Of a stretch of DNA of 39,827 nucleotides, positions 3,332 through 30,153 are shown piece after piece (the first letter of the stretch is position 1; the number at the start of each line of letters is the position of its first letter). A program made the translations under genes and the position numbers. The notes beneath the pieces were generated by a model, which was given only the letters and a program-made list of their open reading frames with translations, had not been told where the DNA came from and searched no databases. Source of the stretch: Vulcanimicrobiota bacterium (GTDB lineage Bacteria > Vulcanimicrobiota > Vulcanimicrobiia > Vulcanimicrobiales > Vulcanimicrobiaceae); the NCBI GenBank assembly GCA_003156715.1, contig PMHO01000038.1:21891-61717 (forward strand), read 5' to 3'.

Positions 3332-5888
3332 CGCGCCGCCGGTCGCGCCGGACCAGCAGCAGCCGGCGCGCGTGCTGACCTTCGAAGCGGGAGACCACCA
3401 CAACGTCGACCTGCTCGGCGGAAAGGGCGCGGGGCTGGTGCGCATGACGGCGGCCGGTTTACCCGTGCCGCCGGGCTTCATCATCACGACCGAAGTTTGT
3501 CGCGAGCGACAACGTGAGGGCCGCTTGCCGTCCGATCTGCTCGACGAGATCGCTCGGTACATGCGGGTGCTCGAAGGACGAACCGGCCGAGGTTTCGGCC
3601 ATGGCCCGGCACCGCTGCTCGTTTCGGTCCGTTCGGGCGCGCCCGTCTCGATGCCAGGCATGATGGAAACGATCCTGAACCTCGGCCTCAACGCGCAAAC
3701 CGCCGAGGCGCTGGCGCGCGAGACGGGCGATCCGCTCTTTTCAGCGACCGTTTTCGTGCGCTTCATGCGCATGTACGGCGAGATCGTCCTCGGCGCAACC
3801 GGCGAGGCAGTCGATCGTGCGGCCGCGCCGCTGCTGGCGACGTTGCGTGACCGTCCCGATGCTGTCTCGATGCGGGCGCTTTCCGATGCCTGCCAGGCCG
3901 CGTTGCGCGAGGACTGCGGCGACGAGGTTCCCGCGGATGCCTTCGAGCAAGTCGCCGGGGCAATCGGCGCCGTTTTCGATTCGTGGAACTCGCGGCGCGC
4001 GATCACCTACCGTAATTTCCACGGGATCGCGCACGATCTCGGAACGGCGGTCGTGGTGCAGGCCATGGTGTTCGGCAATCTCGGTACGCCGTCCGGGACC
4101 GGCGTCGCGTTCTCGCGCGATCCGCTGAGCGGCGAACCGACCCTGTTCGGCGAGTTCCTCGAAGGCGGCCAAGGTGAAGACGTCGTGGCGGGAACGCTAA
4201 CGCCGCAGAAGATTGCGCAGGCCGCCGCGCGCTTTCCGGAACTGTTCGCCGAGTTCGAGGGCGTCGCGCGCCGCCTCGAAGAGCTGTACCGCGACGTCGT
4301 CGACATTGAATTCACCGTCGAGCGCGGGAAACTGTTCATCCTACAGGTGCGATCGGCGAAGCGCACGGCCCAGGCGGCACTGCGCATTGCGGCCGACTTC
4401 CTTACGGAAATGCGCTTGAGCGAGGCCGACGCGCTGCGCAGCGTTACGCTTGCGCAGGTGCGACAGGTCGGGCGGCCTGGTTTCGAACCCGCCGCGGTCG
4501 CGCGCGCAAAGTCCGAAGGAAGGCTGCTCGGCTCCGGCATCGGCGCGTCGCCTGGACAAGTGAGCGGCCGGGTCGCCCTCGATCCCGACCGGGCCGAAGC
4601 TGCAGCAAAAGGATCGAACGGGGCGGGCTCGATCATCTTAGTGCGCCCGACGACGAGCCCGCACGACCTTCACGGCATGATCGCGGCGCGAGGCATCCTG
4701 ACCTCACTGGGAGGCGCGACCAGTCACGCCGCCGTGGTCGCGCGCGCCCTCAACAAGGCGTGCGTCGTCGGCTGCGACCGTTTGACGATCGACGCGGAAA
4801 AGCGCCGTTTCCGCCTCGACCAAACATGGTTCGACGAGGGGGACGAAATCTCGATCGACGGCGCCACGGGCGAACTTTTTGCGGGCGCTCTCCCGGTCGT
4901 CCCGGGCGGCGCGTCGACGCCGCAGATCGAGGCATTGCTGGCCGTTGCCGATCGGCTCGCGCGCTGCCGCATCTTCGCCCGAGTCGCAACCACCGCTCAG
5001 ATCGCGACCGCGCTTGCGTGTGGCGCGACGGGCGTCGCGATCCGCTTGGGCGACGTCTTGACGACGTCCGGCAAGCTCGGCGAATTTATCGACGCGGCGC
5101 TGGCACAACGCGAGGGCAGTTCGGCCGTCGTCCAGATGGCGCAAACGCTCGCGGATTTGCTCGCGCCGCTGCTGGCCGCGTCCGGCCACGCCGACTTCGC
5201 GCTGCGCGCGGTCGATCTCGCTACCGGAGAGGCCACCGAACTCTTGCGAACGGTCGATCTGTTCGCACGCGAGCCGCGGCTGGCGCTGCCCCTGGGCGTA
5301 CCGGAGTTGATCGAGGTGCAGGTGCGGGCCATGGCGCTTGCGATCGAACGCGCGGGCTACGGCGGCAGCGCGCAGTTCATCGTACGGCATATCAACGATC
5401 CAAGCGAAATGCGCGAGCTGCGGCGCATCGCAAGCGCTGCCTCGGGGAGCGGGCGCGCCGCCATCGCGGCAGGCGCCACAATGACGAGCGTTCACGGCGC
5501 CCTGCTCGCATCCGAAATCGGCCGGCATGCCGACGTGCTCTGGCTCGAAGCGCGCAGCCTGATCGCCAACGCCCACGGTTACCCTTCCACGCTGATGCTG
5601 ACCGCCGATCCGCTCGACGACTACCTGCGCCGGGGCCTCTTGAGCGCGGACCCGCGCACGACCCTCGACGAATCGATGACGCGGCTTTTTCTCAGCGTGG
5701 CGGGCGCTGCCGTGAGCAACCCGGAATGTCGCATCGGCATCCGCCTTTCGGGGCAGCTTTCGGAGCAAATGGTGGCCACTCTCTTCCGCAGCGGTTTCCG
5801 TTCCTTCATCGTCGATCCGGACGAGGTTCGCGTTGCCCGCGTCGCGCTCGGACGCGAAGCCGCCGCGATGAACCCGGCGAACGGGTAA
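3318..5888 (+). CDS. Pyruvate,phosphate dikinase-like PEP-utilising enzyme. It has a canonical N-terminal ATP-grasp domain and phospho-His swivel domain, and a divergent C-terminal domain.
   Basis: Three PPDK hallmarks are present. LLGGKGAGLVRMTAAGLPVPPGFIITTEVC and PLLVSVRSGAPVSMPGMMETILNLGLN are PPDK_N hallmarks. GSIILVRPTTSPHDLHGMIAARGILTSLGGATSHAAVVARALNKACVVGC is the swivel domain with the catalytic His. The ~380-aa C-terminus lacks an obvious GTNDLTQ/Cys motif. The start is ATG 3318, and track residues 3192-3317 are not protein-like. Confidence 0.8.
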   Translation: MPAADAPPVAPDQQQPARVLTFEAGDHHNVDLLGGKGAGLVRMTAAGLPVPPGFIITTEVCRERQREGRLPSDLLDEIARYMRVLEGRTGRGFGHGPAPLLVSVRSGAPVSMPGMMETILNLGLNAQTAEALARETGDPLFSATVFVRFMRMYGEIVLGATGEAVDRAAAPLLATLRDRPDAVSMRALSDACQAALREDCGDEVPADAFEQVAGAIGAVFDSWNSRRAITYRNFHGIAHDLGTAVVVQAMVFGNLGTPSGTGVAFSRDPLSGEPTLFGEFLEGGQGEDVVAGTLTPQKIAQAAARFPELFAEFEGVARRLEELYRDVVDIEFTVERGKLFILQVRSAKRTAQAALRIAADFLTEMRLSEADALRSVTLAQVRQVGRPGFEPAAVARAKSEGRLLGSGIGASPGQVSGRVALDPDRAEAAAKGSNGAGSIILVRPTTSPHDLHGMIAARGILTSLGGATSHAAVVARALNKACVVGCDRLTIDAEKRRFRLDQTWFDEGDEISIDGATGELFAGALPVVPGGASTPQIEALLAVADRLARCRIFARVATTAQIATALACGATGVAIRLGDVLTTSGKLGEFIDAALAQREGSSAVVQMAQTLADLLAPLLAASGHADFALRAVDLATGEATELLRTVDLFAREPRLALPLGVPELIEVQVRAMALAIERAGYGGSAQFIVRHINDPSEMRELRRIASAASGSGRAAIAAGATMTSVHGALLASEIGRHADVLWLEARSLIANAHGYPSTLMLTADPLDDYLRRGLLSADPRTTLDESMTRLFLSVAGAAVSNPECRIGIRLSGQLSEQMVATLFRSGFRSFIVDPDEVRVARVALGREAAAMNPANG

Positions 5889-5894: not shown

Positions 5895-8177
5895 GTGCTC
5901 GTGCCGCAAGCGCTTCGTGCGCGTCCCAAACCCTCCCAGCCGGCCCGCATGTCGGCCGCCTCGATCGAACGCGCCTTGCGCAGGTTGGCGGTTGCGGCAG
6001 AGCGGGGCTACCATGTGTTGCTTAGCGAGGCGGAAGAAATATTTGCTGGACTGACCGGCTCGAAGCGCGCGCGCGTTTTTCTCTACGCCGGCGGCTGTTG
6101 GCGCGCGTGGGATTCGATTGAAAATGCGGCAGCAGACAACGCCGCGACGTGGCCGCAGTCCGAGCCGTCGACCTGGAACCGAATCGCCGAACTCAACGGC
6201 GACCAGTTCGTCCCGGTGCGCGCCGGGAGCCTTGCCGTGTTGCTCGAGGGGCCGCGCGGCGGTAAGGAGGGCGAGCACGTCGCGGGCATTGCCGCGGCTG
6301 CCTTCGACCTAGCGCTGACCGCTTGCCAGCGCCGTTCGCTCTCGAGCGACGAGAGCGACGAGATCGGCGTCATGCAGCGCCTGGCGATGCGCATTCTCAA
6401 GAGCCGCAACCTGCAAGAGATCCTGCTCCTGATCACGCACGAAACCAAGCAGCTGCTGGGGGCCGACATCTGCGGCATCATGCTGCGCGAAGGCGATGCG
6501 GTCGTGATGCAGCGCTGCGTCGGAAACTTTTCGGCCGATACGGCATCGCTGCGCATGCAGGCGGGTCAAGGCCTTGCCGGGCGCGTGTTCGAGACGAAGA
6601 AACCTTGTCACGTCGAGCACTACCTCGAGAGCAACCTGATCAGCAAAGACTTCATGCACCTGGCGCGCATCGAGATGGTGCGCTCGGCGCTCGGCGCACC
6701 GCTGCTCTCGCAGGACGACGCAATCGGCGTACTCGAGGTCTGGCGCCGCCAAATCTCGAAGTTCGACGAGCGCGACACGCGGCGGCTCGTCATGCTCGCG
6801 AACTTGACCTCGGTCGCGATCGAGAATGCCCGCCTCTCGCAAAGCCTCGAAAGCAACATGCTCGAGCTAGCCGCAGCCAACGCAGCGTTGATGGCGCGCT
6901 ACGAAGTGGTCCGCGCTTCGGCGGGCTTTCAACACGAACTGATCCGCTTGCTGCTCGAAGGCAAGAGCCTCGGCACCATCGCCGCCAAAGCGGCAGAGCA
7001 CGTCGATGCCGAGGTGCTGATCCTCGACGCGAACTTCGAGATCGAGGGTGCCTCGCCGGCGTGCGAGCGACTTTCCGACCGGCTGCGCGAACAGATCAAA
7101 GCGGCGCTGCGCAAGGCGCCTTCGAACGGTCCCGAGACGACCGCCGCAATGCTGGAAGGAAAGCCGGCGCTGCTCCAACCGGTCGTCGCCGCAACCGAGC
7201 GGCTCGGTGTGGTCGTCCTTCGACGGCAAACGCCGCTCGATCAAAACGCGCAGCTTGCGCTCAGCCAAATCTGCATCGTGACATCGCTGCACCTGATCGA
7301 GCGCCGCGCCGCCGCGCGCGCCCGGGCGGAGACGCTCGGTGCCGTCTTGTGGGACCTCTTGGAAGGGACCGATGACGTCCGGCGCTCGGCTGCGGCCCGC
7401 GCCCGCGACCTGCGCGTCGACCTCGAGGGAGGCCACCGCGTGTTCCTGTGCGCCCTCGACGGCATCGAACAGCAGGCCAATAGCGAGGGCTGGAGCCCGG
7501 GCGAAATCAGCGTACGGCGCAGACGCATCGCACAGACCTACCGCACGGTCGAAGACCTGGAAAAATCGGTGAAGCTCTCGGGCGCGCGCGCCAACTTCGT
7601 GGCGCTGGTTTGCGGGGGCGAGGCGGTTCGCGATGCGGAGCGTTTGGGAGCCAAGCTTGCGGCTGCCATCGCCGCGAACGTCACGGGACTCTCGGTCCAG
7701 GTCGGCATCAGCACGCCGTGTATCGGCCCGGCCTCTTTGAGCGCGGCGTATCGTGAAGCCAAAATATCGCTCGAGGTGGCCCGCCAGCGCGGCCGCGTCG
7801 CGGCGGCCTGTTACGAGGATGCAGGGATCGTCGGCATGCTGCTGAGCTTGCGCGCGGAGGCTGACGTCAAGAAAGTCGTGCACACGATCTTCGGGCCGCT
7901 GCTCGAGGAGAAAGCGCAGACCCGCGACCTGCTGTTCGGAACGCTCAAAGCCTTTTTCGAGCTAAACTGCTCGCGCCGAGCCGCCGCGAAAAAGCTTCGC
8001 GTCCACGAAAAGACGATCGTTTACCGGCTGGCGAAGATCGAATCGCTCACGGGTCTCGACTTCAGCAAGCACGAGAAGCGTCTCTTGGCGGACATCGCCT
8101 TGCAGATGTACGGCATGTCGGCGGAACGCGTCGCTTCAGGGCTTCCTTGGATCGATAACGACCTTCATCGCCCGTAA
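5895..8177 (+). CDS. Transcriptional regulator with a central GAF domain and a C-terminal PucR/CdaR-type HTH
   Basis: The C-terminus FGTLKAFFELNCSRRAAAKKLRVHEKTIVYRLAKIESLTG is a PucR-type HTH. The central region (MQRLAMRILKSRNLQEILLLITHETKQLLGADICGIMLREGDAVVM...) is GAF-like. Its 3' end overlaps the convergent ADH gene by 42 bp. Confidence 0.8.
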   Translation: MLVPQALRARPKPSQPARMSAASIERALRRLAVAAERGYHVLLSEAEEIFAGLTGSKRARVFLYAGGCWRAWDSIENAAADNAATWPQSEPSTWNRIAELNGDQFVPVRAGSLAVLLEGPRGGKEGEHVAGIAAAAFDLALTACQRRSLSSDESDEIGVMQRLAMRILKSRNLQEILLLITHETKQLLGADICGIMLREGDAVVMQRCVGNFSADTASLRMQAGQGLAGRVFETKKPCHVEHYLESNLISKDFMHLARIEMVRSALGAPLLSQDDAIGVLEVWRRQISKFDERDTRRLVMLANLTSVAIENARLSQSLESNMLELAAANAALMARYEVVRASAGFQHELIRLLLEGKSLGTIAAKAAEHVDAEVLILDANFEIEGASPACERLSDRLREQIKAALRKAPSNGPETTAAMLEGKPALLQPVVAATERLGVVVLRRQTPLDQNAQLALSQICIVTSLHLIERRAAARARAETLGAVLWDLLEGTDDVRRSAAARARDLRVDLEGGHRVFLCALDGIEQQANSEGWSPGEISVRRRRIAQTYRTVEDLEKSVKLSGARANFVALVCGGEAVRDAERLGAKLAAAIAANVTGLSVQVGISTPCIGPASLSAAYREAKISLEVARQRGRVAAACYEDAGIVGMLLSLRAEADVKKVVHTIFGPLLEEKAQTRDLLFGTLKAFFELNCSRRAAAKKLRVHEKTIVYRLAKIESLTGLDFSKHEKRLLADIALQMYGMSAERVASGLPWIDNDLHRP

Positions 8178-9182
8178 CGCCGCAAGCTCGGCGTATGCGC
8201 CCGGTGCTCCCTCAAACGACACCCGCGCGCCGACCACATCGCTCGGATCGAGCGCGCGGGTCCCCAAGAGCGCGAGCAAGGTGCGGCGCACGCGGATCGC
8301 GTCGCCGATTGCAAACGAGAACGAGATCTCGTCCGCGAAGCATTTCGCGAGCGGCAGCTCCCAGCGCTCGGCTGCGTGTGCGCCGACTGAAACGATCCGG
8401 CCGCGACGCCGGACGAGCTGCAACGCGCTCGTAAGCGCCGCATCGCGTCCGACCGCTTCGACGACCACGTCGGCACCGTCGCCGTCGGTCAGCTCTCGAA
8501 TTAGGCGCTCGGCATCCTCCGGCGCCGCGGCAAGCGCACCGTGCGCTTCTGCGAAGCGGCGCCGCTCTGCGCTCGGTTCGACCACGACGACAATGCCGGC
8601 GCCGGCCGCCTGGGCGCACATGCTGGCGAGCTGACCGACCGCGCCGCCGCCGATGACGGCCAACACTTCGCCCGGCGCAAGCCCGCTGCGCTCGATCGCA
8701 ACCCAGCCGGTCGGCAAATTATCGGCCAGCAGAATGGCGCTTTCATCCGAGCAGGCCGCGGGAACGCGCATGAGCGCGACGTCCGCAAACGGCACGCGGA
8801 CGAGCTCCGCTTGAGCGCCTGACAGCGGCGGACCGAAGGCTGCGCCCGTACCAAAAAAAGCGCGTTGCGCGCACTCCCAATGATCGCCGCGGTCGCACCA
8901 ACGGCATGCTCCGCAGGCGACGAAATCCGAGGCGAAGACGCGCTCGCCCGGCCTCACGTGCTGCACCGCCGAGCCGACTTCGACGACGCTGCCGACGAAT
9001 TCGTGTCCCAGCACGAGGCCCGGCTCGACACCGGGAAAGTCGCCGCCGATCAGATGCAGGTCCGTTCCGCAAATACCGCACAGGCTCGGGCGCACGAGCG
9101 CGTCGGTTGGGTCGACCAACGCCGGCTCGCGCACATCGTCGAGCCGAACCGAGCGCGAACCAGCGAAGACCACCGCGCGCAT
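8136..9182 (-). CDS. Zn-dependent alcohol dehydrogenase (MDR superfamily)
   Basis: It has the catalytic-Zn motif SLCGICGTDLHLIGGDF...GHEFVGSVVEVG, the structural-Zn Cys cluster CGACRWCDRGDHWEC, and the GxGxxG motif VIGGGAVGQL. It is the last gene of the - strand BMC operon, starting 2 nt after the MDH stop. Confidence 0.85.
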   Translation of the reverse strand: MRAVVFAGSRSVRLDDVREPALVDPTDALVRPSLCGICGTDLHLIGGDFPGVEPGLVLGHEFVGSVVEVGSAVQHVRPGERVFASDFVACGACRWCDRGDHWECAQRAFFGTGAAFGPPLSGAQAELVRVPFADVALMRVPAACSDESAILLADNLPTGWVAIERSGLAPGEVLAVIGGGAVGQLASMCAQAAGAGIVVVVEPSAERRRFAEAHGALAAAPEDAERLIRELTDGDGADVVVEAVGRDAALTSALQLVRRRGRIVSVGAHAAERWELPLAKCFADEISFSFAIGDAIRVRRTLLALLGTRALDPSDVVGARVSFEGAPGAYAELAALRAMKVVIDPRKP

Positions 9183-9184: not shown

Positions 9185-10576
9185 TTAGCGCGGCATGGCC
9201 TTGATGCGCTCGTCGATCGCCTTGGCGGACGCTGCCAGCTCCGCACGCTCGGCGGGGCGCAGGGCGAGGTCGACGATCCGGCGGACGCCCGTACGGCCGA
9301 GCAGCACCGGAAGACCAACGCGCGTGTCGATTAACCCATAGGCGCCGCGCGAGCGAACGCAGGCTGGGATCACTTCGTCGGAGTCGTCGACGATCGCCTG
9401 TACTTGTTTGGAAATCGCCGAGCCCGGCGAGAAAAACGCGCTGCCGCTTTGCAGCAGTTTCGTAACCTCGGCACCGGACTCGCGCGTGCGACGGACGATG
9501 CCGTCGAGCGTCGCGCTATCGAGCAGTTGCTCGAGCGGAACGTTGTTCGCCGTCGCTTGACTCAGTGGAATCACCATTTCCGCGCCGTGGCTTCCCAGGA
9601 CGAGCGCGCGAACGTCCTGAGCGCGAACGGCACCGGTAAGTCCGACCAGGGCGCGGAAGCGCGCGGTGTCGAGCACGCCGCCCATCCCGACGACGCGCTC
9701 GGGCGGAAAAGCCGTCAGCTCGCAAACGAGCTGCGTCATCTCTTCGAGGGGATTCGTGACGACAACGACGACCGCGTTCGGAGCAAGCTCTTTGATCGAG
9801 GGCGCAATCGAGCGTACGATCTCGGAGTTGGCCGCCGTCAAGTCGGTGCGCGACATGCCGGGCTTGCGCGGCCGCCCCGCCGTTATCACGATCACATCCG
9901 AACCCGCCACGTCGGCCATGCGGTGACTGCCTTCAACGCGCGTATCGAAGCCGCGCAGCCCGGCGCTGTGCCACATGTCGAGCGCGAGACCTTCGGCCAG
10001 CCCCTCGACGACGTCGATCAGCCGCACGCGCGCGAACCGGTCCGCTAAGGCGAGCGCGAAACCGGCACTCGCGCCAACGTGACCGGCACCGACGACCGTC
10101 ACCTGCGGGCGCGCAAGCGCCGCATCCGTCTGCCCGGCGCGCACGTTGCGCTCGCCCGCAGAGCCATATGCGCTGCGACGGTAGAGGGCACCCGAGCGCG
10201 GCAAGGCCGCGCTGCCGCTCGGGGCGGCGGCCTGCGCGACGCGTGGAAGTCCCGGGCCGACGCGCGCCGGGCCTGCCGGAGTCGTGCGCGCAGGTTGTTG
10301 CAGCACGCCGCGCTGCGCAGGCTGCGAAACGGGTCGCTGTACGAGCGCCGGGCTGACGTACGACGTCATGGTGCGTTGCGGCGGACCGCTCGCGCCGTCG
10401 CGTTCGATCGTGATGCCGAGCTCTTTCGCGCGGTCGAGCGCGAGCGGCGTCACCACGTCGAGCGGGCCGATGCGCAAGCTCCCCGAGGCCTGCTCCACGT
10501 CGCGAAGCGTGAAGACGCTTCTCGGCGTTTCCTCCTTTGACGACGCGCGACCGTTCGGAACGCCGGCCCCCTTCAC
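9185..10576 (-). CDS. mdh: LDH-like malate dehydrogenase carrying a ~150-aa N-terminal extension (a small folded motif followed by a Pro/Ala/Gln-rich linker)
   Basis: The C-terminal ~310 aa match LDH/MDH: VTVVGAGHVGASAGFALAL, DVIVITAGRPRKPGMSRTDL and VLGSHGAEMVIP. The Arg in the GRPRKPG specificity position points to malate rather than lactate. The N-terminus (MKGAGVPNGRASSKEETPRSVFTLRDVEQASGSLRIGPLDVVTPLALDRAKELGITIERDG, then a low-complexity PAQ-rich stretch) is absent from ordinary MDHs. The start overlaps the BMC-T stop by 4 nt. Confidence 0.85.
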   Translation of the reverse strand: MKGAGVPNGRASSKEETPRSVFTLRDVEQASGSLRIGPLDVVTPLALDRAKELGITIERDGASGPPQRTMTSYVSPALVQRPVSQPAQRGVLQQPARTTPAGPARVGPGLPRVAQAAAPSGSAALPRSGALYRRSAYGSAGERNVRAGQTDAALARPQVTVVGAGHVGASAGFALALADRFARVRLIDVVEGLAEGLALDMWHSAGLRGFDTRVEGSHRMADVAGSDVIVITAGRPRKPGMSRTDLTAANSEIVRSIAPSIKELAPNAVVVVVTNPLEEMTQLVCELTAFPPERVVGMGGVLDTARFRALVGLTGAVRAQDVRALVLGSHGAEMVIPLSQATANNVPLEQLLDSATLDGIVRRTRESGAEVTKLLQSGSAFFSPGSAISKQVQAIVDDSDEVIPACVRSRGAYGLIDTRVGLPVLLGRTGVRRIVDLALRPAERAELAASAKAIDERIKAMPR

Positions 10577-11193
10577 TCGCGTCCCTCGAGAGCGGCCAGG
10601 GCGGCGACGGCGGCGTCGCGCGCGGTCCGCACGTCGCTCTCGCTTCCGGAAACGAACAGCCGGCCGAAGCGGCCGACGGCGCGCACCTCGATCAGGCTGA
10701 TCTCGGCCGTTTTCTCCGCCTCGTTGGCTGCCAGCGTGACGTAGGCCGCGGGCGAAACCTCGAGAACGAACAAGCTGCTGCGCGGCAAGAGCAGATTTCC
10801 CTTGCGCCAGCGATTGATCAGCTGCGCTTGATACGGGTTCACGTTGGTCACGAATTGCGAGGACGCCACTTTCGGCTTGAGGCGATCGGCTTCGCCGATC
10901 CCGAGGTACTCGAGCACCGCTTGCCCGGCGGCGATGACTTCGGCTTGCGTTCGCGAGTGCACCTCGAGCAACCCGAATTCGCGCTCGACGATCTGAAGGG
11001 CGGGGCGAACGTCGGCCGCTTTGAGGGCCACGTCCGCGCAGCGGAAGATTTCGTTACCCGGGGCAACCTCGATGAACAACTCCGACATTCCGGCCACCGG
11101 GACGTCGCCTTGGCAAGTGGCCGCAACGTGTGCCGCCGCTTGCGGCTGCATGCGATCGATGAACGCGTACGTGCGCAACTCGACGCCGGCCAT
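10573..11193 (-). CDS. BMC-T shell protein (tandem, permuted BMC domains; EutL/PduB-like)
   Basis: From the internal ATG 11193 there are two BMC-like repeats: ...MSELFIEVAPGNEIFRCADVALKAADVRPALQIVEREFGLLEVHS and ...SLFVLEVSPAAYVTLAANEAEKTAEISLIEVRAVGRFGRLFVSG. There is a GAGGGG RBS about 11 nt upstream. The track ORF 10573..11454 over-extends by 87 codons. Confidence 0.72.
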   Translation of the reverse strand: MAGVELRTYAFIDRMQPQAAAHVAATCQGDVPVAGMSELFIEVAPGNEIFRCADVALKAADVRPALQIVEREFGLLEVHSRTQAEVIAAGQAVLEYLGIGEADRLKPKVASSQFVTNVNPYQAQLINRWRKGNLLLPRSSLFVLEVSPAAYVTLAANEAEKTAEISLIEVRAVGRFGRLFVSGSESDVRTARDAAVAALAALEGRE

Positions 11194-11230: not shown

Positions 11231-12631
11231 TCACTTGAGATCGTACAGCGAGCGCCACGGCCGGATCTCGTGTGCGATGCGCTTGATGTTGATGAGATGC
11301 AGCGGCGTAACGTTGTCGGAGACGATCGATCCGCTCCAGGTTCCGGTGCCCAGCATGAACGACGGATCCGTGGCAGCGCTGAAGCCCATTCCGCCGAACA
11401 AGCTCGGCGTATTGCAAAGAATGCGTGCGGCCGGGAGGGACGCGAACTTGGCAATCACCGCGTCGTCGCCCGCGTGGAGGCCGAGCGTGTGGCCGGCGCC
11501 GCCGAAATCGAGAACCTGCCGGCAGCGTTCGTAAGCGGCGTCCGCGTTCTTGGCGCGATAGAACGACAGAACCGGGCCGAGAATCTCACGCGACAACGGG
11601 GTTTGCGGCCCGACGTCGTGCAGCTCGGCGGCGAGCACGCGGCAATTCGCTTCGACGCGCGCCCCGATCCGGTCCGCCAGAACGCGCGCCGATTGTCCGA
11701 CCGACTGCGGCCGCAGATCGCCGCCCTCGGTAAAGAGAAGCGACGCCAAGCGCTGCGCCTCCTCCGCACCAAGAAAGACGGTGCCCTGCGCTTCGAAAGC
11801 CGTAAAGGCGGCGTCGGCGATAGGCTCGTCGAGGACGACCGATTGTTCGGCGACGCAGGCCGTTCCGTTGTCGAAGGCTTTCGAAGTGACGATCATCGTC
11901 GCCGCTTCGAGCAGGTCCGGGACGGAGCGATCGATGTATGCCGGCACGTTGCCGGGCCCGACTGCCAGCGTCGGTTTACCAGAAGAATAGGCAGCGCGCA
12001 CCATGCCGGCGCCGCCGGTTGCCAGGACCATCGAGACGGCCGGATGGCGCATCAACTCCTGCGTCGACTCGAGCGTAACGCTCTCCAGACACGAGATCAG
12101 GCCGCGCGGCGCCCCAGCCCGCTCGGCCGCGCGGGCCATGATCTCGGCCGTGCGCGCGCAACAGCGCACCGCGCGCGGATGCGGCGCGCAAACGATGGCA
12201 TTCCCCGACTTGACCGCCGCCAGGCATTTGAACAGGACGGTCGAGGTTGGATTGGTGACGGGGATGATGGCGGCCAAAACGCCCATCGGTGAGCCGACGG
12301 CCGCCATCCGGTTCGGCTCGTCGACCCACAGAACACCGAGCGTGCGCATCTCCAGCATCGCTTGGGCCACGAAGCGCGCGTTGTAAAGATTCTTGTAGAC
12401 CTTGTCGGCGACGACGCCGTAGCCGGTCTCCTCGACGGTGAGCCGGGCGAGTTCTTCGGCCGCGGCCGCCCCGGCGTTTGCCATTGCGCTCACGATGCGG
12501 TCGACCACCGCTTGCGTGGCGCCGTCGAACGACTCGAAGGCGGCCCGTGCGTCGCGCGCTTTCGCGCGCGCTTCAGCGAGCGCGATCAGGTCGGAATCGG
12601 CTTCGAGCGCAGCCATCGCGCCCCCAGGCAC
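11231..12631 (-). CDS. CoA-acylating aldehyde dehydrogenase (PduP/EutE family)
   Basis: The ALDH fold is clear. VGPGNVPAYIDRS and TSKAFDNGTACVAEQSVV match the PduP/EutE catalytic-Cys motif, and the C-terminus (...VTPLHLINIKRIAH) is EutE-like. A GTG start at 12631 sits 9 nt downstream of a GGAGGA RBS. No long N- or C-terminal extension is evident. Confidence 0.9.
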   Translation of the reverse strand: MPGGAMAALEADSDLIALAEARAKARDARAAFESFDGATQAVVDRIVSAMANAGAAAAEELARLTVEETGYGVVADKVYKNLYNARFVAQAMLEMRTLGVLWVDEPNRMAAVGSPMGVLAAIIPVTNPTSTVLFKCLAAVKSGNAIVCAPHPRAVRCCARTAEIMARAAERAGAPRGLISCLESVTLESTQELMRHPAVSMVLATGGAGMVRAAYSSGKPTLAVGPGNVPAYIDRSVPDLLEAATMIVTSKAFDNGTACVAEQSVVLDEPIADAAFTAFEAQGTVFLGAEEAQRLASLLFTEGGDLRPQSVGQSARVLADRIGARVEANCRVLAAELHDVGPQTPLSREILGPVLSFYRAKNADAAYERCRQVLDFGGAGHTLGLHAGDDAVIAKFASLPAARILCNTPSLFGGMGFSAATDPSFMLGTGTWSGSIVSDNVTPLHLINIKRIAHEIRPWRSLYDLK

Positions 12632-12661: not shown

Positions 12662-12964
12662 CTACTTGAGCTTGCCGAGAATCAGGTCCACGTCTTCGTG
12701 GGGCCGTGGGATCACATGCACCGAGATCACCTCGCCGACCTTGCCGGCCGCAGCCGCGCCGGCATCGGTCGCGGCCTTGACCGCCCCGACGTCGCCGCGG
12801 ACCATGACGGTGACGAGGCCACCCCCGATTTGCTCTCGGCCCATCAGCCGGACGTTGGCTGCTTTGACCATCGAATCGGCCGCCTCGATCGCTGCGACGA
12901 GGCCCTTTGTTTCGATGAGACCGAGCGCGCCGCCCGGGGACTCCGAGCTACCTGGTGCTGCCAT
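12662..12964 (-). CDS. BMC-H shell protein (single BMC domain; PduA/EutM/CcmK-like)
   Basis: [77 protein letters not shown] is a canonical BMC domain. An AAAGGGGGG RBS lies upstream. Confidence 0.9.
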
Positions 12965-12988: not shown

Positions 12989-13294
12989 CTACTTGACGAA
13001 CGTGGTGCGCGAATCGAGCCGGGCACTGTCGACGATGGCGACGATGGCGGCATCGGTCGGAACGCGCGCCGTGCCCTCGTCGACGCGCGCGGCGCCGCCG
13101 TGCGCGACCAAAACGATCTCGCCCTCGCCGACGCCGACCAGGTCGATGGCGGCATACACCGCGGCGCTTGCATCGCCGTCGCCGCCAAGCGGATCGCGCG
13201 GATCGACCTCTCGAACCAACAAAAGTTTGTAGCTCGACAGACCGTCGGCTTTGACCGTGGCGACGACGTTTCCGCACACCCGCCCTAGGCGCAT
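12989..13294 (-). CDS. BMC-P vertex protein (EutN/CcmL/PduN family)
   Basis: From the internal ATG 13294 the sequence runs MRLGRVCGNVVATVKADGLSSYKLLLVREVDP...AAIDLVGVGEGEIVLVAHGGAAR...AAIVAIVDS. An AAAGGG RBS lies upstream, and it is the first gene of the - strand operon. The track ORF 12989..13429 over-extends by 45 codons. Confidence 0.85.
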   Translation of the reverse strand: MRLGRVCGNVVATVKADGLSSYKLLLVREVDPRDPLGGDGDASAAVYAAIDLVGVGEGEIVLVAHGGAARVDEGTARVPTDAAIVAIVDSARLDSRTTFVK

Positions 13295-13470: not shown

Positions 13471-14493
13471 TTGATCCAAGATGCGGATGCGGACTTTCAC
13501 GGGCGCGATTCGAGCGACCCCACCTGGTCCGAAACGAACTACTTCGCCTTCTACGAGCCGCAGTCGCGTTTAAACGTCGGTCTGTACGCGCTTTTCCGGA
13601 CGACCCTGGGAACGGTCGGCTCGACGATCTGCATCAATTCCGGCCGGTCTTTGACGCCGTGGGAAGCCGATTTCTGCGACATGCGCTCCTCGCTGCCGAT
13701 TCCGAAGCCCTACGACCTGCGCGCTTACAAGCTCGCCAACTCGCTCGCGGTCCGTACGATCGAGCCCAACCGCGTCTGGGATCTGCGCTACGATGACGGC
13801 GAAGGTACGCGGGTCGACGTGCGCTGGGAGGCGCTGATGCCGGGCTTCGACATCCACGATCCGGCCGAAGATCCGATGGCGGCGGCGGCGAGTCACGCGC
13901 AGGCCGAGGGCAAGTTCGCCTGGGGAACCGCCTACAACGGCCATTTCGATCAAACGGGGCGCGCCCACGGTACGGTCGCCGTTCGCGGCAAGGCGTATGA
14001 AATCGACTGCGTTTCCACCATGGACCACAGTTGGGGTCCGCGCCCCGAGCGCGGCGCCCCGCCGATGTGTTGGCTCGGCGCCCATTTTTCAAAAGATTTC
14101 GCGATGCATGCCATCTTCAGCTTCGATCCGGCCCAGAACCCGACGGGGCTACGCTTGACGCACGGTTACGTCCTCGAGCGGGGGAAGGTTTTCGGTCTTA
14201 AAGCGGGGAGTGGCCGCACGGTGCGCGGGAGCGACCGTTACGCCGAGACCATCGAGCTCACCGTAACCGACCGGGCCGAACGCACGTGGAACTTCTCCGG
14301 CGCCGGCTTGACGACGTTTCCCTGGCTATGCTGGCCGAATATGGTCGGCTTCAACGTCCTGACGCGTTGGGAGTGCAACGGCTTGACGGGCTACGGCGAG
14401 ATCTACGACTTCTACGAGCTGCCGCTGCTCGCGTCGCTCAACGGCTCGCCCGCGACCCGCATCGCATCGAGGCCGGCCTCCGTGAACGCCTGA
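13471..14493 (+). CDS. Hypothetical protein (340 aa), Trp-rich and probably a beta-rich fold; function unknown
   Basis: A TTG start is preceded by a strong GAGGAGG RBS 6 nt upstream. It is transcribed divergently from the BMC shell operon across a 176-bp intergenic region. I recognise no family motif with confidence; any resemblance to AttH/CrtC-type lipocalin hydratases is vague. Confidence 0.55.
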   Translation: MIQDADADFHGRDSSDPTWSETNYFAFYEPQSRLNVGLYALFRTTLGTVGSTICINSGRSLTPWEADFCDMRSSLPIPKPYDLRAYKLANSLAVRTIEPNRVWDLRYDDGEGTRVDVRWEALMPGFDIHDPAEDPMAAAASHAQAEGKFAWGTAYNGHFDQTGRAHGTVAVRGKAYEIDCVSTMDHSWGPRPERGAPPMCWLGAHFSKDFAMHAIFSFDPAQNPTGLRLTHGYVLERGKVFGLKAGSGRTVRGSDRYAETIELTVTDRAERTWNFSGAGLTTFPWLCWPNMVGFNVLTRWECNGLTGYGEIYDFYELPLLASLNGSPATRIASRPASVNA

Positions 14494-14497
14494 GCCG

Positions 14498-15487
14498 ATG
14501 CCGCCGCGCGCGATCCTCTTCGACTTCGACGGCACCCTCGTTCAAACGCGCGAGGCTTCCTGGGAGCTGTTCGCTCAAACCAATCGCGAGTTTGGCCTGG
14601 GCATCGAGGATCGCGACGCTTTTTTCGATCTCTTTAACGACAACTTTTTCCGGGCTCTCGCCGCCCGTTGCCCCGACAAGACGAAGCTCGATGCGGCCAA
14701 GCACCACTTTCTCGAGCTCCTTCGCACGCAGTACACGCCGCCGCTGGTACCGGGCCTGGCCGACGTGGTGCGAACCCTGGCGAGCCGCTGCACGCTCGTC
14801 GTCCTCTCCACCAACACGATCGCAACGATTCGACGCGTGCTGAGCGAAGCCGGCGTGGCGACGTGTTTCGCGCACGTCTTCTCGGGCGACGTGGAACCCG
14901 ACAAGAGCGTCAGCATGCGGCGCTTCCTCGCCGACGCAGGTTACGGCGTCGGACGGCGCTGCTCGCCTGCGTACGACGAGCTCAACGGCGCGCGCGACGA
15001 AGGCGGCGTAGCACTGATTACCGACACGGCAGGCGACGTGAAGGAGGCGTTGGCTTGCGGCGTTCGCGCCATCGGCGTCGCGTGGGGCATGCACGGCGAA
15101 TCCGAGCTGCTTGCAGCCGGCGCCGAAACGGTGGCGGTTTGGCCGCAAGAGCTCATCGCTTGGCTTGCGTCGGGCGAGCCCGCGCCTGGTGCGACGGCCT
15201 GTTTGCTTCCTCCCAAGGGCGCCTGCGCATGCGAGGGCGCTACCTCGACACCGTGCGCTTGTCCGCACGAACCGGCCGCTACGGCAGCCGAGCGCGTTGC
15301 CGCCGCCGCGCGCGTGCGCCGCGCGCGCAACTCCGAGCGCTTGGAGGAGGCTCGCCGCACCCGGTTTTGGGATCGCAGCGAATCCGTGCTTCGCTCGGAG
15401 CCGCCGCCGGCCGTGCCGCGCGCGCCACCGCCGTCAGAACCCGAACTGCTGGCGACGCTGCGGCGTCTGCGTCACATCCAGGTTTGA
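14498..15487 (+). CDS. HAD-superfamily phosphatase (phosphoglycolate-phosphatase-like) with a ~100-aa C-terminal tail
   Basis: The N-terminus ILFDFDGTLV is HAD motif I, and later motifs are VVLSTN and GDV...D. The tail has a Cys cluster (CLLPPKGACACEGATSTPCACPHEP), an Ala/Arg-rich segment, a Pro-rich segment (EPPPAVPRAPPPSEPE) and ends LLATLRRLRHIQV. It starts 4 nt after the upstream stop. Confidence 0.8.
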   Translation: MPPRAILFDFDGTLVQTREASWELFAQTNREFGLGIEDRDAFFDLFNDNFFRALAARCPDKTKLDAAKHHFLELLRTQYTPPLVPGLADVVRTLASRCTLVVLSTNTIATIRRVLSEAGVATCFAHVFSGDVEPDKSVSMRRFLADAGYGVGRRCSPAYDELNGARDEGGVALITDTAGDVKEALACGVRAIGVAWGMHGESELLAAGAETVAVWPQELIAWLASGEPAPGATACLLPPKGACACEGATSTPCACPHEPAATAAERVAAAARVRRARNSERLEEARRTRFWDRSESVLRSEPPPAVPRAPPPSEPELLATLRRLRHIQV

Positions 15488-15518
15488 ACGTGCATCTTCG
15501 CTGAGGAGGACAGAAGCA

Positions 15519-15935
15519 ATGACAGTTTTAGCCGAAGGTTACAACGCCTTCGAAACACCCAAATCGCCGACCGGCGTCGTCAAGTACCTCGGTGACCCGA
15601 CTGCGGTTATCGCGCTGATCTCGAGCGGCAAACTGCAAGACCACATCATCCTGGCGCAGGGCGGAACGACGACCTTCCTGTCCCCGGCGCTCACCATGGG
15701 ATGCCTCGGCGTCATCACGCTCTCGGGTGCGCCCGAGTCCCATCTCGGCATCCTGTCGCGCGAGTTTCAAATCCCGTGCATCATGACCGCCTATCAGCCG
15801 AACACCGAAACCCGCTACGTCACGGGCGGCAACAACGACGAGCACTTCAAGCAAATGATTGCAGCTCTCGACGGGAAGAAAGTCCGTCTCAAGTGCGACC
15901 ATCACGACGTCGCGCAGGTACTCCTCGAAGACTGA
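15519..15935 (+). CDS. Stand-alone PEP-utilising-enzyme mobile (phospho-histidine swivel) domain protein, 138 aa
   Basis: ATG 15519 follows a GAGGAGGA RBS. The sequence LQDHIILAQGGTTTFLSPALTMGCLGVITLSGAPESHLGILSREFQIPCIM resembles the GG.TSHAAI.ARE.GIP swivel motif, with a candidate catalytic His in ESHLG. Confidence 0.7.
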   Translation: MTVLAEGYNAFETPKSPTGVVKYLGDPTAVIALISSGKLQDHIILAQGGTTTFLSPALTMGCLGVITLSGAPESHLGILSREFQIPCIMTAYQPNTETRYVTGGNNDEHFKQMIAALDGKKVRLKCDHHDVAQVLLED

Positions 15936-15986
15936 CCCTCGTAACTTCACGTCTTACGCAGCGCTCAAGACAAGAGAGGAAACGCG

Positions 15987-17408
15987 ATGATAGATCATAT
16001 GGCCGGTTATTTGAAGCGGTACGAACCCGACGACAACGGGCTGCGCTTCCAGGACCTGGTCTACCAAGGCAACTTCAAGGGGATGGAGCCCGTTCCCGAC
16101 GGGATTCTCGGCGACAAGATCATGCGCCAGCGCGCAAAGAGCAAGGTCCTCGAGAAAGTCAGCCACCAGGACGTGCTCAGAGACAACTTCACGATCGACG
16201 AGCTCAACGATCTCAACAACTACCTGGCCTGGAACATTTGGGACGTGCTCGTCATGCGCGCGACCGAGGGCGTGTCGGGCATGATCCCGCGCCAGGAATA
16301 CGAGATCTTGGCGTTTATGCACGAGTTCTACCGCTGGCCGGAGATCCTGCGCATGACCAACGATGAGGTTGGAGCACAAGCGATCATCGACATCGGCAAG
16401 AGCGCCCGGCGCGAGATCGGAACGAAGGTGAACTGCGTTCACGACTGGTGCATCGGCGCGGTCGGATTCGGCATGGGCCGCTGCGGACTGCTCGCCCTCG
16501 AAGTCATCAAACCGCAAGATTTCGTCGAGGAAAGCAACATCATCCTCAAGTTCATGCAGCGCGTTCTGTGGGGCAAGCGCCAAGACGGCTACATCCTCAA
16601 CTCGCAAGATCGCTACCGCTGCTTGATCCACGACCAAGATTTCCTGGACACGCTGACGCCGCAGCTCGAGGAGATCGAGGCAGGCAGTGAAAAGCACGAC
16701 GCTTTCGTCCGCTTCAACGCGACCGCCGAGCTGCTCGCCTTCCTCGACCACTACGACTGCCGCCTCGGTCTAGGGGACACCGGGCCCTATCCACTTCCGG
16801 ACGGAAAGGTCTTGATCGTTCGCGACCTTTTCTGCAACGAAGAAGTCTACCACTGGAGCGACGTGTGCGATCACGAGAAGGTCCCGCACGCGTACACGAT
16901 GCTGGTCGTCCTGGATGCGGCCAAGATGGGGCTCGAGGAAATTCGGGTCAACGACATCTCGACGACCTTCACCCGGCCCAAGAACTACATCCCGTATATC
17001 ACCGCAGGCGCGGTGTTCGTGCGCGAGAAGTGGAACACGCCCATGTCCGAGGTGTACTCCGTTCCCATCAAGGATCTCGCACCGCGGCTGCATGGCGTGC
17101 AGCAAGCCACGCTCAAGCTCTACACCAAGACCTCGCGCATGTCGCGCCGCCAGTTGATCACCAACGGAATGTACGATTACTACATCGAGATGATCTTACC
17201 CCACTTGCGACTGGCCGGAACGTACGAGAAGGCGTGCAAGGAGTACGACTTCTGGGAGATCGACCATCGCATCTCGGATTACTACTACGACATCACCAAG
17301 CGCGGCTTCGCACAGGCAACCGTGCCGCAGAAGATCTTCTCGGGCGAAGGCTACCTGCCGTTCCCGGACAACGTCGATCCGCGGCGTTCGAAGTACTTCT
17401 GGGATTAA
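15987..17408 (+). CDS. Hypothetical protein (473 aa), Cys/His-containing, with Asp/Glu/Lys/Tyr-rich composition; function unknown
   Basis: It has an AGAGAGG RBS. This is a long clean ORF whose amino-acid composition and apparently lower GC differ from its Ala/Arg-rich neighbours. It lies between the swivel-domain gene and the second BMC-H. I recognise no family motif. Confidence 0.6.
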   Translation: MIDHMAGYLKRYEPDDNGLRFQDLVYQGNFKGMEPVPDGILGDKIMRQRAKSKVLEKVSHQDVLRDNFTIDELNDLNNYLAWNIWDVLVMRATEGVSGMIPRQEYEILAFMHEFYRWPEILRMTNDEVGAQAIIDIGKSARREIGTKVNCVHDWCIGAVGFGMGRCGLLALEVIKPQDFVEESNIILKFMQRVLWGKRQDGYILNSQDRYRCLIHDQDFLDTLTPQLEEIEAGSEKHDAFVRFNATAELLAFLDHYDCRLGLGDTGPYPLPDGKVLIVRDLFCNEEVYHWSDVCDHEKVPHAYTMLVVLDAAKMGLEEIRVNDISTTFTRPKNYIPYITAGAVFVREKWNTPMSEVYSVPIKDLAPRLHGVQQATLKLYTKTSRMSRRQLITNGMYDYYIEMILPHLRLAGTYEKACKEYDFWEIDHRISDYYYDITKRGFAQATVPQKIFSGEGYLPFPDNVDPRRSKYFWD

Positions 17409-17477: not shown

Positions 17478-17774
17478 ATGATTGAGACGTTTGGGGTTGA
17501 GGCTCTGGGGCTGGTCGAGACCTTCGGCCTGGCAGCGGCCGTGGAGGCGGCCGATGCGATGGTGAAGACCGCGAGCGTCCGCGTCATTACCAAGCAGCAG
17601 CCAGGCGGCGGGCTCATCGCCATCATGGTGACCGGGGAAACGAGCGCCGTGCAGTCCGCGGTCGATGCCGGCGTCGCAGCGGCCGAGCGCGTCGGCCGCG
17701 TCGTCAGCCGGCGCGTCATCGCCAGACCTGACGCAGACATTCTCGACCTGCTCGAGCGGCCGCCGGTGCGTTGA
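17478..17774 (+). CDS. BMC-H shell protein, second copy (satellite)
   Basis: From the internal ATG 17478 the sequence runs MIETFGVEALGLVETFGLAAAVEAADAMVKTASVRVITKQQPGGGLIAIMVTGETSAVQSAVDAGVAAAERVGRVVSRRVIARP, a canonical BMC domain. Confidence 0.85.
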   Translation: MIETFGVEALGLVETFGLAAAVEAADAMVKTASVRVITKQQPGGGLIAIMVTGETSAVQSAVDAGVAAAERVGRVVSRRVIARPDADILDLLERPPVR

Positions 17775-18787: not shown

Positions 18788-20185
18788 ATGAGCCGAGTGC
18801 TAGAGACCCCGCGCAAACGTGACAGCCTTCCCTACGGCGGTTACTACCGTCACGACGACGAGTCGGTTCCCAAGTCCGAGCGGGAGCTGACGCACGCCGG
18901 CCCGGGCAGCCCGATGGGCGAATACATGCGCCGTTTCTGGCAGCCGGTGTGCCTTTCGCAGGAGCTTACCGACGTCCCGAAAGCGATCCGCATCCTTCAC
19001 GAGGACCTGGTCGTCTTCAGAGACCGCAGCGGCCGCATCGGCCTGCTGCATCTGCATTGCAGCCATCGCGGGACGTCGCTAGAGTTCGGCATCGTGCAGC
19101 AACGCGGCATTCGCTGTTGCTATCACGGCTGGCTGTACGACGTCGATGGAACGGTCCTGGAAATGCCGTGCGAGCCGAGCGACACGCGCCTCAAGCAGAC
19201 CGTTTGCCAAGGAGCCTATCCAGCGTTCGAGCGCGACGGTATCGTCTTTGCATACATGGGGCCGCCCGAAGCGAAACCGGTCTTCCCGGAATACGACGCG
19301 TATCGGATGCCGGCCGGAACGCGCCTGGTCCCCTTCTCAAACCTCTATGCCTGCAATTGGCTGCAAGTCTACGAGAATCTGATCGACCACTTTCATTCGG
19401 CCGTTCTGCACAACAACATGACGGTCGATAGCATCGACGCGGAGCTCGCGGCCGGCCTGAACTTAGGGGAAGGCTTCCGCGAGATGCCGGTCATCGAATG
19501 GCATGCAACGCGCAACGGCAACGGTCTGATCTTCTCCGCGGCGCGGCGCGTGGCCGACGACCGCATTTGGATTCGCATCACCGAGCAAAACTTCCCCAAC
19601 TTCGTTGCCACCGCGTCGCTGGTCCCTTCGGCCGCGCGCTTGCGGCACACCACCGTCGCGATGTCGCGCTGGCAAGTACCCGTCGACGACGAGAACATGA
19701 TCGTTCTGGGGTGGCGGCACTTCAACGATGAGATCGATCCCGACCACATGGGATGCGCGGAAGACTGCGGCGTCGACCGCATCGATTTCCTCGATGGGCA
19801 AACGCGGCACCGCACCTACGATGAGAAGCAGCGCGCGCCGGGCGACTACGAAGCGATGACAAGCCAACGCCCGGTCGCCCTCCATCATCTCGAACATCCC
19901 GGTAAGTCGGATGTGGGCGTCTACACCTGCCGGCAGCTTTTGCGCGACGCGGTCCGCGGCAAAGCGTCCTCGAACGGTCACGCGCCCGCCGGCGAGTCGC
20001 TGCCCGTGTACACCTCCGATTCCGTGCTGCGCCTGCCGCGCCGGGAGGGACCGGAGGACCGCGAGCTGCTCGTGCAAACCGCGCGCCGCGTCGTCGAAAT
20101 CATGCGCGAATGCGACGAGTTACCTTCCGCGGAGCGCAACGAGCACGCCTTGAAGCGCCTCGACGAACTCGACGGCGGCTTGTAG
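18788..20185 (+). CDS. Rieske [2Fe-2S] non-haem-iron oxygenase alpha subunit
   Basis: The Rieske motif is CSHRGTSLEFG...CCYHGWLYD (CxH...CxxH). The C-terminal catalytic domain is His/Asp-containing, and there is a GGGAG RBS. No reductase or ferredoxin partner is present in this window. Confidence 0.85.
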   Translation: MSRVLETPRKRDSLPYGGYYRHDDESVPKSERELTHAGPGSPMGEYMRRFWQPVCLSQELTDVPKAIRILHEDLVVFRDRSGRIGLLHLHCSHRGTSLEFGIVQQRGIRCCYHGWLYDVDGTVLEMPCEPSDTRLKQTVCQGAYPAFERDGIVFAYMGPPEAKPVFPEYDAYRMPAGTRLVPFSNLYACNWLQVYENLIDHFHSAVLHNNMTVDSIDAELAAGLNLGEGFREMPVIEWHATRNGNGLIFSAARRVADDRIWIRITEQNFPNFVATASLVPSAARLRHTTVAMSRWQVPVDDENMIVLGWRHFNDEIDPDHMGCAEDCGVDRIDFLDGQTRHRTYDEKQRAPGDYEAMTSQRPVALHHLEHPGKSDVGVYTCRQLLRDAVRGKASSNGHAPAGESLPVYTSDSVLRLPRREGPEDRELLVQTARRVVEIMRECDELPSAERNEHALKRLDELDGGL

Positions 20186-27513: not shown

Positions 27514-27534
27514 CGGTGGCCTTCTTACGAGCGG

Positions 27535-28833: not shown

Positions 28834-28983
28834 GAGAGCCCTCCAGCGTCGCCAGTTTCCTACCGTCGCAGCTTTGTCGCGGGCCCGCCCGTACCTTCGC
28901 GGCATTAGACCCGCTCCGACCGTCGGCTGCCGCTGGACATTCGCAGCGAGGACCTCGACGACGGTCTGGTATAGTCCAGCGCC

Positions 28984-30030: not shown

Positions 30031-30153
30031 AGGCCCTGCACGGCGGGGGCAAGGCAGCATAGCTTCCTTTTCAGCCGGGCTGTAGGGAAACGGTGGCTCT
30101 TCCGGCTAGCTAATGAAAAGAATGTTTTTGCCCCTCGGCCGCTGCTCGGCTGG

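Follow-up and report, generated by a model that had tools for sequence, protein, structure and literature searches.

The window analysed here is a 39,827-nucleotide stretch of DNA from a Vulcanimicrobiota bacterium (assembly GCA_003156715.1, contig PMHO01000038.1, positions 21,891 to 61,717), and it holds, at positions 14498-15487 of the plus strand, an ATG-start open reading frame (ORF) for a 329-aa HAD-IA phosphatase within a bacterial microcompartment (BMC) locus of the MIC1 type ("metabolosome with incomplete core"). We consider it likely that the C-terminal tail of this MIC1-associated phosphatase is an encapsulation extension, a reading drawn from sequence comparisons and predicted structures in which the last amphipathic helix is the candidate encapsulation peptide (EP). 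The observation at its centre is that, in the loci examined, tail and shell genes occur strictly together. A C-terminal EP had been put forward for this ORF in an original prediction, and the ORF was found with the features described there; the conservation of the tail beside shell genes, the predicted helicity of the terminus, and the absence of the tail from non-BMC homologues all support the proposal.

The comparison of tail and shell was made over 80 genome loci from Burkholderiales, Bradyrhizobium, Roseiarcus, Pseudonocardia, Amycolatopsis, Nakamurella, Chloroflexi, and others. The HAD gene has as neighbours a BMC-H shell gene in 76 of these loci, an aldehyde dehydrogenase (AldDH) gene in 75, a DUF7064 gene in 78, the gene of a highly conserved 473-aa protein without family assignment (unk473) in 65, a PPDK-like gene in 66, and a swivel domain gene in 62. 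Of the four loci that gave no BMC-H match, three are contigs shorter than 4 kb, and two shell-linked HAD ORFs are cut by contig ends. Orthologues beside shell genes keep the tail: all 74 complete shell-linked ORFs carry one, of 73-164 aa.

In contrast, homologues outside BMC loci lack the tail or have it in reduced form. Eight loci (L039, L083, and L164-L169) were classed as shell-less, meaning that no PF00936 or PF03319 gene is present in the flanking DNA examined, up to 10 kb on each side. All eight keep the DUF7064-HAD-swivel-unk470 cassette, often followed by unk200 and a PPDK-like protein or by a Rieske oxygenase, and in all eight the HAD protein is tail-less or reduced. These shell-less HADs are 216-248 aa long and end 7-27 residues after the core, except for that of L039 (Methylocella silvestris TVC), where a 46-aa tail remnant has neither the Cys cluster nor the Arg-rich (RR) helix described below. 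Generic HADs are tail-less as well. A core-only search of the whole library gave a sharp break between the family (at least 41% identity) and generic HADs (200-220 aa, 26-38% identity, tail-less) and also turned up short family members, and the PDB fold neighbours of the core are 208-240 aa long, none of them tailed. When metagenomes were searched with the generic patterns 'FDLDGT' and 'VTDTVGD', 79 of the 80 listed loci were unrelated HADs at 21-30% identity. In a neighbour-joining tree of the cores, most tail-less proteins are basal and one tail-less pair (P0132/P0286) is nested in a tailed Burkholderiales group. By this tree, the tail appears to have been gained with the shell and later lost with the shell at least once.

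The tail stands apart from the rest of the locus in this respect. The DUF7064, swivel, unk473, unk214, and PPDK-like proteins have no C-terminal extension and are of equal length with and without a shell, their N-termini being judged from gene-call lengths. When a hidden Markov model (HMM) of the terminal peptide was run against the six-frame ORFs of the 80 loci and the window, it returned 70 HAD matches and scattered noise elsewhere. A tag common to several cargo enzymes was therefore rejected, as this model matched no other gene in the 80 loci.

A homologue search returned 722 homologues, and among the best 120 of these, from which tail lengths were taken, 120 are tailed (50-190 aa, median 103). 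Sequence modules were counted over 288 unique tails, with the chance expectation taken from residues shuffled within each tail. A CxC motif is present in 251 of the 288 tails against 37.6 expected by shuffling, an RR motif with the consensus A-A-x-hyd-R-R-x-R-R-L (hyd, hydrophobic) in 285, and a terminal motif, D-x-E-L-L-x-A-L-R-R-(L/I)-x-G, in 272. The terminal motif starts at a median of 13 residues from the C-terminus and is conserved over approximately 14-16 aa (positions -3 to +9/+11), and the median hydrophobic moment (muH) of the terminal helix is 0.55 over 260 homologues, as opposed to 0.25 for 11-mers of the linker. That linker, which joins the RR helix to the terminal helix, is 6-75 aa long (median 23), is composed of 21% Ala, 12% Pro, 9% Ser, 8% Gly, and 7% Thr among other residues, and is without conserved columns both in alignment A1, of 35 sequences, and in the family. 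A median of 4 residues follow the terminal helix.

The modules stand in the order Cys-RR-EP in 236 of the 250 complete tails, with the EP-like helix last in 247. In 11 tails the RR helix comes before the Cys cluster (RR-Cys-EP; loci L049, L054, L077, L078, and seven others), so the modules can be separated from one another. The terminal helix is duplicated, with approximately 25-40 residues between the copies, in P0008, P0009, P0027, and P0058, and also in P0011 and P0048 in alignment A1, a pattern one would expect if it is a binding module in its own right. The positions and the order of the motifs are kept across Proteobacteria, Actinobacteria, Chloroflexi, and Dormibacterota; the number of Cys (1-9) and their spacing vary among the family tails. 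Both the RR helix and the terminal helix contain 'hyd-R-R-x-R', and the HMM of the terminal helix matches the RR helix weakly. Judging by this likeness, the RR helix may be a diverged duplicate of the terminal helix and a second binding element.

In the window protein itself, a normal HAD core is followed by further residues much as had been described, with the core closing at WPQELIAWLASG and a tail of approximately 105 residues (about 100 had been claimed). A structure was predicted with AlphaFold2 (AF2) using the family alignment, which yielded a mean predicted local distance difference test score (pLDDT) of 82.4, and helices were assigned by DSSP; the last core helix spans residues 216-224, 'WPQELIAWLA'. 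After it comes the Cys cluster, CLLPPKGACACEGATSTPCAC (aa 235-255; 15200-15262, plus strand), with Cys at 235, 243, 245, 253, and 255. The five Cys are those that had been noted, but their spacing is C-x7-C-x-C-x7-C-x-C and not the x8 spacing that had been given. The model shows residues 225-262 as coil (pLDDT approximately 46-61), and a 99%-identical homologue, P0001, retains all five Cys with 4 residues between them changed. The Ala/Arg-rich segment is present as quoted at aa 258-295, where AF2 predicts a long basic helix over aa 263-295 (15284-15382, plus strand; pLDDT approximately 79-83) in which, by alignment A1, R274 is invariant and R275 is at least 90% conserved.

The Pro-rich stretch EPPPAVPRAPPPSEPE could likewise be located, at aa 300-315, and it overlaps a poorly conserved Pro/Ala-rich linker (aa 296-314; 15383-15439, plus strand) that is predicted as coil with pLDDT of approximately 52-58. 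The quoted terminal LLATLRRLRHIQV occupies aa 317-329. Over aa 315-327 (15440-15478, plus strand), PELLATLRRLRHI forms the predicted terminal amphipathic helix, the candidate EP, at a pLDDT of approximately 77-79; the terminus is helical in the model, not fully disordered, and amphipathic across the family. Terminal 11-mers of the window protein have a muH of approximately 0.5, L317 is at least 90% conserved in alignment A1, and two residues (QV) and the stop codon follow the helix, to 15487.

One further segment, this time inside the core, belongs with the tail in its distribution. It is a family-specific insertion between HAD motifs III and IV, DAGYGVGRRCSPAYDELNGARDEGG (aa 146-170; 14933-15007, plus strand), in which Y149, R153, C155, and Y159 are invariant in alignment A1 and AF2 pLDDT falls below 50 at residues 154-166. 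All 231 long-tailed members have C155, and 11 of 15 tail-less ones, including the deep tail-less lineages, lack it; the four tail-less carriers comprise one truncated ORF and three proteins that became tail-less recently. From this co-occurrence, the Cys cluster and C155 may share a metal or disulfide site, or provide a docking site.

EPs are defined as amphipathic helices of 15-20 aa at a terminus, joined by a poorly conserved linker and found only on BMC-associated homologues (PMC4594438; PMC8217296, Sutter 2021, the latter available to us in part, as is Axen 2014 below). At the level of sequence, the terminal helix of the HAD tail agrees with this published definition on every point, and the linker before it is poorly conserved and rich in small residues; two conserved modules stand upstream of that linker. 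As a candidate EP, the helix would bind a shell protein through its hydrophobic face or bundle with other cargo during assembly, and the phosphatase would end up in the compartment lumen, as the anatomy of the tail and its co-occurrence with the shell suggest. More tentatively, the Cys cluster and the core C155 would probably form a metal or disulfide site, and the RR helix would probably give a second contact to shell or cargo.

Several points weigh against an encapsulation extension. The EP model leaves the Cys cluster and the RR helix unexplained, since classical EP extensions have linker at that place, and with such a conserved segment before the linker the tail may have a function beyond targeting, or a different one altogether. 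The terminal helix, at 13 residues by DSSP, is short as EPs go. The tail-less lineages represent just two to three or so independent evolutionary events in the neighbour-joining tree, and, since shell-less refers to flanks of no more than 10 kb per side, those genomes may have a shell locus farther away. Moreover, the shell always arrives with AldDH and mostly with the gene of a malate dehydrogenase (MDH)-type enzyme, and co-occurrence therefore cannot separate shell binding from enzyme binding.

This last point leads to the alternative that survives best, namely that the tail is a cargo-cargo scaffold and not a shell tag. Its modules would bind other MIC1 enzymes, such as AldDH or the MDH-type enzyme, shell contact would be indirect, if any, and the HAD protein would be an assembly hub like CcmN or CcmM in beta-carboxysomes. 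Unlike most BMC AldDHs, that of MIC1 lacks an extension at either terminus that could be an EP (its C-terminus lies within approximately 3 aa of those of its orthologues), and the HAD protein could therefore serve as the hub. A scaffold would also suit the three separately conserved and sometimes duplicated tail modules, the presence of the peptide on no other protein in the 80 loci, and the co-occurrence of the tail with AldDH and mostly with the MDH-type gene just as with the shell, and EPs have been proposed to cluster cargo besides recruiting shell (PMC4594438). However, the MDH-type enzyme owns a BMC-specific N-terminal domain, so it need not piggyback on another protein, and a scaffold overlaps with the EP reading rather than opposing it. 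On balance, we regard a scaffold that is not a shell tag as unlikely.

A regulatory tail, in which a redox- or metal-sensing Cys cluster and an autoinhibitory helix gate the phosphatase with no part in targeting, strikes us as very improbable. It would account for the co-occurrence of the conserved CxC cluster with the Cys of the core insertion next to active-site motifs, and the low AF2 confidence at both Cys segments is as expected of a cofactor-dependent fold. Nevertheless, the loss of the tail with the shell would go unexplained, since the cassette, and presumably its chemistry with it, stays, and so would a terminal amphipathic helix after a variable linker. We give next to no credence to the RR helix being a nucleic-acid-binding arginine-rich motif, or to the tail being non-functional low-complexity read-through of a high-GC gene, for although the 'RRxRR(L/Q)' consensus resembles arginine-rich RNA-binding peptides and the Ala/Arg/Pro-rich region is overlapped by many spurious ORFs, the motif positions and order are conserved across the four phyla, the Cys are kept while adjacent residues vary, the tail is strictly linked to shell genes, and nothing in the locus hints at nucleic-acid metabolism.

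With an encapsulation extension still the reading we favour, the known arrangement that the HAD tail most resembles is, by analogy, that of CcmN in beta-carboxysomes. CcmN also ends in an amphipathic helix (approximately 15-18 aa) after a long variable linker, and a short hydrophilic fragment often closes the protein after this helix (PMC4594438), comparable to the median of 4 residues after the HAD helix. The CcmN linker is 23-277 aa long (PMC4594438), set against 6-75 aa for the HAD linker and a median of 103 aa for the whole HAD tail. There is, however, no sequence homology between the two; the body of CcmN is a hexapeptide-repeat adaptor and that of the HAD protein an intact enzyme, and the CcmN linker is without conserved modules, whereas the HAD tail has the Cys cluster and the invariant RR helix.

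The EPs of metabolosome enzymes offer a second comparison. Those of PduP, PduD, and EutC, and the C-terminal EPs of type I AldDh and class II aldolases, are likewise found as extensions only on BMC-associated homologues (PMC4594438; PMC8217296, as far as available), and they share with the HAD tail an amphipathic helix and a small-residue or Pro-rich linker. The HAD tail differs from them in belonging to a new cargo family, in a locus type whose AldDH is EP-less, and in having a strongly basic helix (R-R) and a much longer, partly conserved extension. Cys-rich C-terminal extensions also occur in PduK and in the GRM6 'H_pumpkin' BMC-H, though these are shell proteins and not cargo, the Cys spacing is unlike that of the HAD tail, and homology is not expected.

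The HAD protein belongs to the same family as the MIC1 'HAD_2 hydrolase' of the Axen 2014 and Sutter 2021 catalogues, so far as the available parts of these show. The MIC1 locus type and its HAD hydrolase are thus already known, and a putative EP on a HAD would be a new cargo family, although a prior EP annotation in the remaining parts of Sutter 2021 is possible. The tail, its modules, and its loss in shell-less loci are not described in the available parts of either catalogue, and our literature search found no account of a BMC-targeted HAD, of the MIC1 tail, or of its shell dependence; the comparison with the EP-HMMs of Sutter 2021 covered part of the set, 26 models, with no 'mic1' or '13419' among them.

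Apart from its tail and insertion, the HAD protein is otherwise, on its sequence, an ordinary phosphatase that is predicted to be catalytically intact. The Pfam HAD_2 model matches it at 5.9e-11, and the HAD_2, Hydrolase, and HAD models together cover residues 4-181. The core with its C1 cap takes up aa 1-224 (14498-15169, plus strand) and is predicted at pLDDT above 90. Its catalytic motifs, DxD (D9, D11), S104/N106, K136, and D176/D180, are invariant in alignment A1, and Foldseek matched the core to HAD-IA phosphatases with a probability of 1.00 and target-normalised TM-scores of up to 0.82. With motifs I-IV and a predicted Rossmannoid fold both found, we place the protein in subfamily IA of the HAD superfamily phosphatases, with a C1 cap. 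Generic COG0546/Gph-type HAD-IA phosphatases (2ah5, AlnB 4ex7, Aquifex PGPase 2nyv, and CbbY 4uau) share the Rossmannoid core, C1 cap, and four motifs. Nevertheless, they are only 14-23% identical to the HAD protein, tail-less, and without the motif III-IV insertion (R153/C155/Y159), and as such their substrates are not transferable to it.

Two narrower names were tried and rejected. For 'phosphoglycolate phosphatase', the name given by JGI, the NCBIfam PGPase models reach 17-32 bits where their cut-offs are 180-368, and for a phosphonatase (PhnX-like, aldehyde-generating) the NCBIfam match covers aa 163-214 with just 31 bits, the cut-off being 219. As for the reading frame, G+C content at third codon positions is 0.67-0.83 in the HAD frame and is held through the tail region. 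Long antisense ORFs overlap the gene (e.g., 14438-15268, minus strand), and these are the usual high-GC artefacts, with conservation at the protein level lying in the plus-strand frame. The HAD gene is probably translationally coupled to the DUF7064/DUF7065 gene immediately upstream (13471-14493, plus strand; Pfam), which ends in a stop at 14493 and is also present in all shell-less loci.

The HAD gene lies between two blocks of shell genes, the upstream one being divergent and on the minus strand. That block comprises a BMC-P gene (EutN/CcmL pentamer) of approximately 101 aa from an internal Met (12989-13294; Pfam PF03319, 2.2e-22), a first BMC-H hexamer gene (12662-12964; PF00936, 1.8e-29; copies 73-92% identical in the 76 of 80 loci), the gene of a CoA-acylating-type AldDH (11231-12616; Pfam Aldedh; NCBIfam TIGR02518, 4.4e-149, aligned from aa 12), and the gene of a BMC-T-like shell protein of approximately 206 aa whose C-terminal half has a Pfam BMC match (10573-11193). 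The size of the latter agrees with the 209-214 aa of the Tdp_denim_MIC1 proteins (Sutter 2021, PMC8217296, available part). Beyond it on the same strand lie the gene of the malate/lactate-dehydrogenase-type enzyme (9185-10576; Pfam Ldh_1_N/C; NCBIfam PRK06223, 329 bits) and that of a zinc-type alcohol dehydrogenase (Zn-ADH; 8136-9182; Pfam ADH_N/ADH_zinc_N). On the plus strand, the HAD gene is followed by the gene of a free 138-aa swivel phosphohistidine domain of the PEP-utilizers type (15519-15935; PF00391), by unk473 (15987-17408), and by a second BMC-H hexamer gene (17478-17774; PF00936, 6.7e-25). Further upstream are unk214, a 214-aa protein, a PPDK-type ATP-grasp and swivel protein, and a PucR/GAF regulator.

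The MDH/LDH-type enzyme carries before its core an N-terminal region of approximately 155 aa, made up of a conserved domain of approximately 40 aa with the pattern 'V-I/V-T-A-x-D-V-E...D-x-x-T-P-L-A-x-D-R-A-K-E-L-G-V-x-I-E', a variable Pro/Ala linker, and a conserved 'PPSGALYRRGA' motif (48 loci). The available part of Sutter 2021 (PMC8217296) records such an N-terminal extension for MIC1 and MIC2 and calls it EutQ/cupin-like.

By its gene content, this is a MIC1-type BMC locus. In the available text of Axen 2014 (PMC4207490), MIC1 is described as having AldDH, lactate dehydrogenase (LDH)/MDH-type and Zn-type dehydrogenases, and 'a hydrolase, a phosphatase', with no phosphotransacylase (PTAC) and no signature enzyme. 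The window has the corresponding shell and AldDH genes (PF00936 three times, PF03319, and PF00171 (pfam00171)) and the corresponding enzymes (Ldh_1_N/C, ADH_N/ADH_zinc_N, and HAD_2), and no PTAC family was found among the 30 window ORFs scanned by Pfam. The MreB-like protein that Axen 2014 mentions for MIC1 was not seen in the window. The Sutter 2021 catalogue, in the part available, has an entry 'PF13419 HAD_2 HMM13419hydrol_1_mic1', and its shell trees label the shell proteins of L021 (Roseiarcus fermentans DSM 24875) and L023 (Bradyrhizobium macuxiense BR 10303) as bmcType=MIC1 (PMC8217296). Compared with the window, these two loci have 71-73% identity in AldDH, 88-90% in BMC-H, and 53% in the HAD protein, and the Bradyrhizobium HAD, AS156_18425, is two locus-tag steps from the MIC1-typed BMC-P AS156_18415.

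With or without a shell, the HAD gene travels in a cassette of DUF7064/65, HAD, free swivel domain, unk473, an approximately 200-aa protein without assignment, and the PPDK-type protein (in the window, 13471-17408 and 2687-5888). For the PPDK-type ATP-grasp and swivel protein, the match to NF004531, which models a truncated PPDK, has 529 bits (cut-off, 456). In its sequence matches, the cassette resembles a split phosphotransfer system of the dikinase type, and it is a candidate for the signature chemistry so far missing from MIC1. The earlier suggestion that a phosphatase would suit a compartment handling a phosphorylated substrate agrees, by analogy, with these adjacent dikinase-like genes.

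A Rieske/LigXa_C-type oxygenase gene (18788-20185, plus strand) was also observed, with relatives at 59-67% identity beside cassettes; it occurs in the window, in three other shell-linked loci, and in four of the eight shell-less loci (loci L006, L012, L056, L164, L165, L167, and L168), and its product may act on the pathway substrate. In the shell-less locus L166 (JGI Ga0256612_1492803), the cassette is preceded by a sigma-54 activator with MimR_N, an AldDH, a Zn-ADH, and an AMP-binding ligase, a gene set hinting that a small alcohol or ketone is broken down. At the window's start (20-2712, plus strand) are a 3-hydroxyisobutyrate-dehydrogenase-like gene, whose true start is near 629, and the gene of a 395-aa protein with His_Phos_1 matches, the N-terminal half of which (approximately 165 aa) looks like a degenerate second His_Phos_1 copy. 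Each of these two genes accompanies MIC1 genes in just two of the 80 loci, so they are probably outside the conserved locus. Positions 24139-33345 hold two branched-chain-type ABC transporter sets (periplasmic binding proteins, permeases, and ATPase) with a GH130-like gene between them.

Taken further, the tail could be a three-module organiser, an elaboration which as a whole we hold to be doubtful. A Cys site held by a metal or disulfide would bridge the tail and the core insertion (C155), the RR helix would bind other cargo such as the EP-less AldDH, and the terminal helix would recruit the shell, so that in MIC1 the HAD protein would play the part of CcmN or CsoS2. In the cytosol, the cassette would produce a phosphorylated precursor, the encapsulated HAD would dephosphorylate it in the lumen, and the reactive aldehyde would appear only beside AldDH. 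If this were true, the cassette and the HAD protein together would be the long-missing 'signature' chemistry of MIC1.

MIC1 is a microcompartment type without a named signature enzyme or an AldDH EP, and the HAD tail points to a likely cargo for it. The tail could serve as a testable targeting tag in MIC1 hosts and for engineering, and the natural shell-less versions of the operon are ready-made controls. A dikinase-like cassette around a conserved protein of unknown fold, travelling with the HAD gene regardless of the shell, narrows the search for the chemistry of the compartment. The Cys and RR modules, for their part, suggest that encapsulation signals may be more elaborate than a linker and a helix. 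The finding of a tail is unsurprising in principle, yet it makes the assembly and cargo of MIC1 compartments testable.

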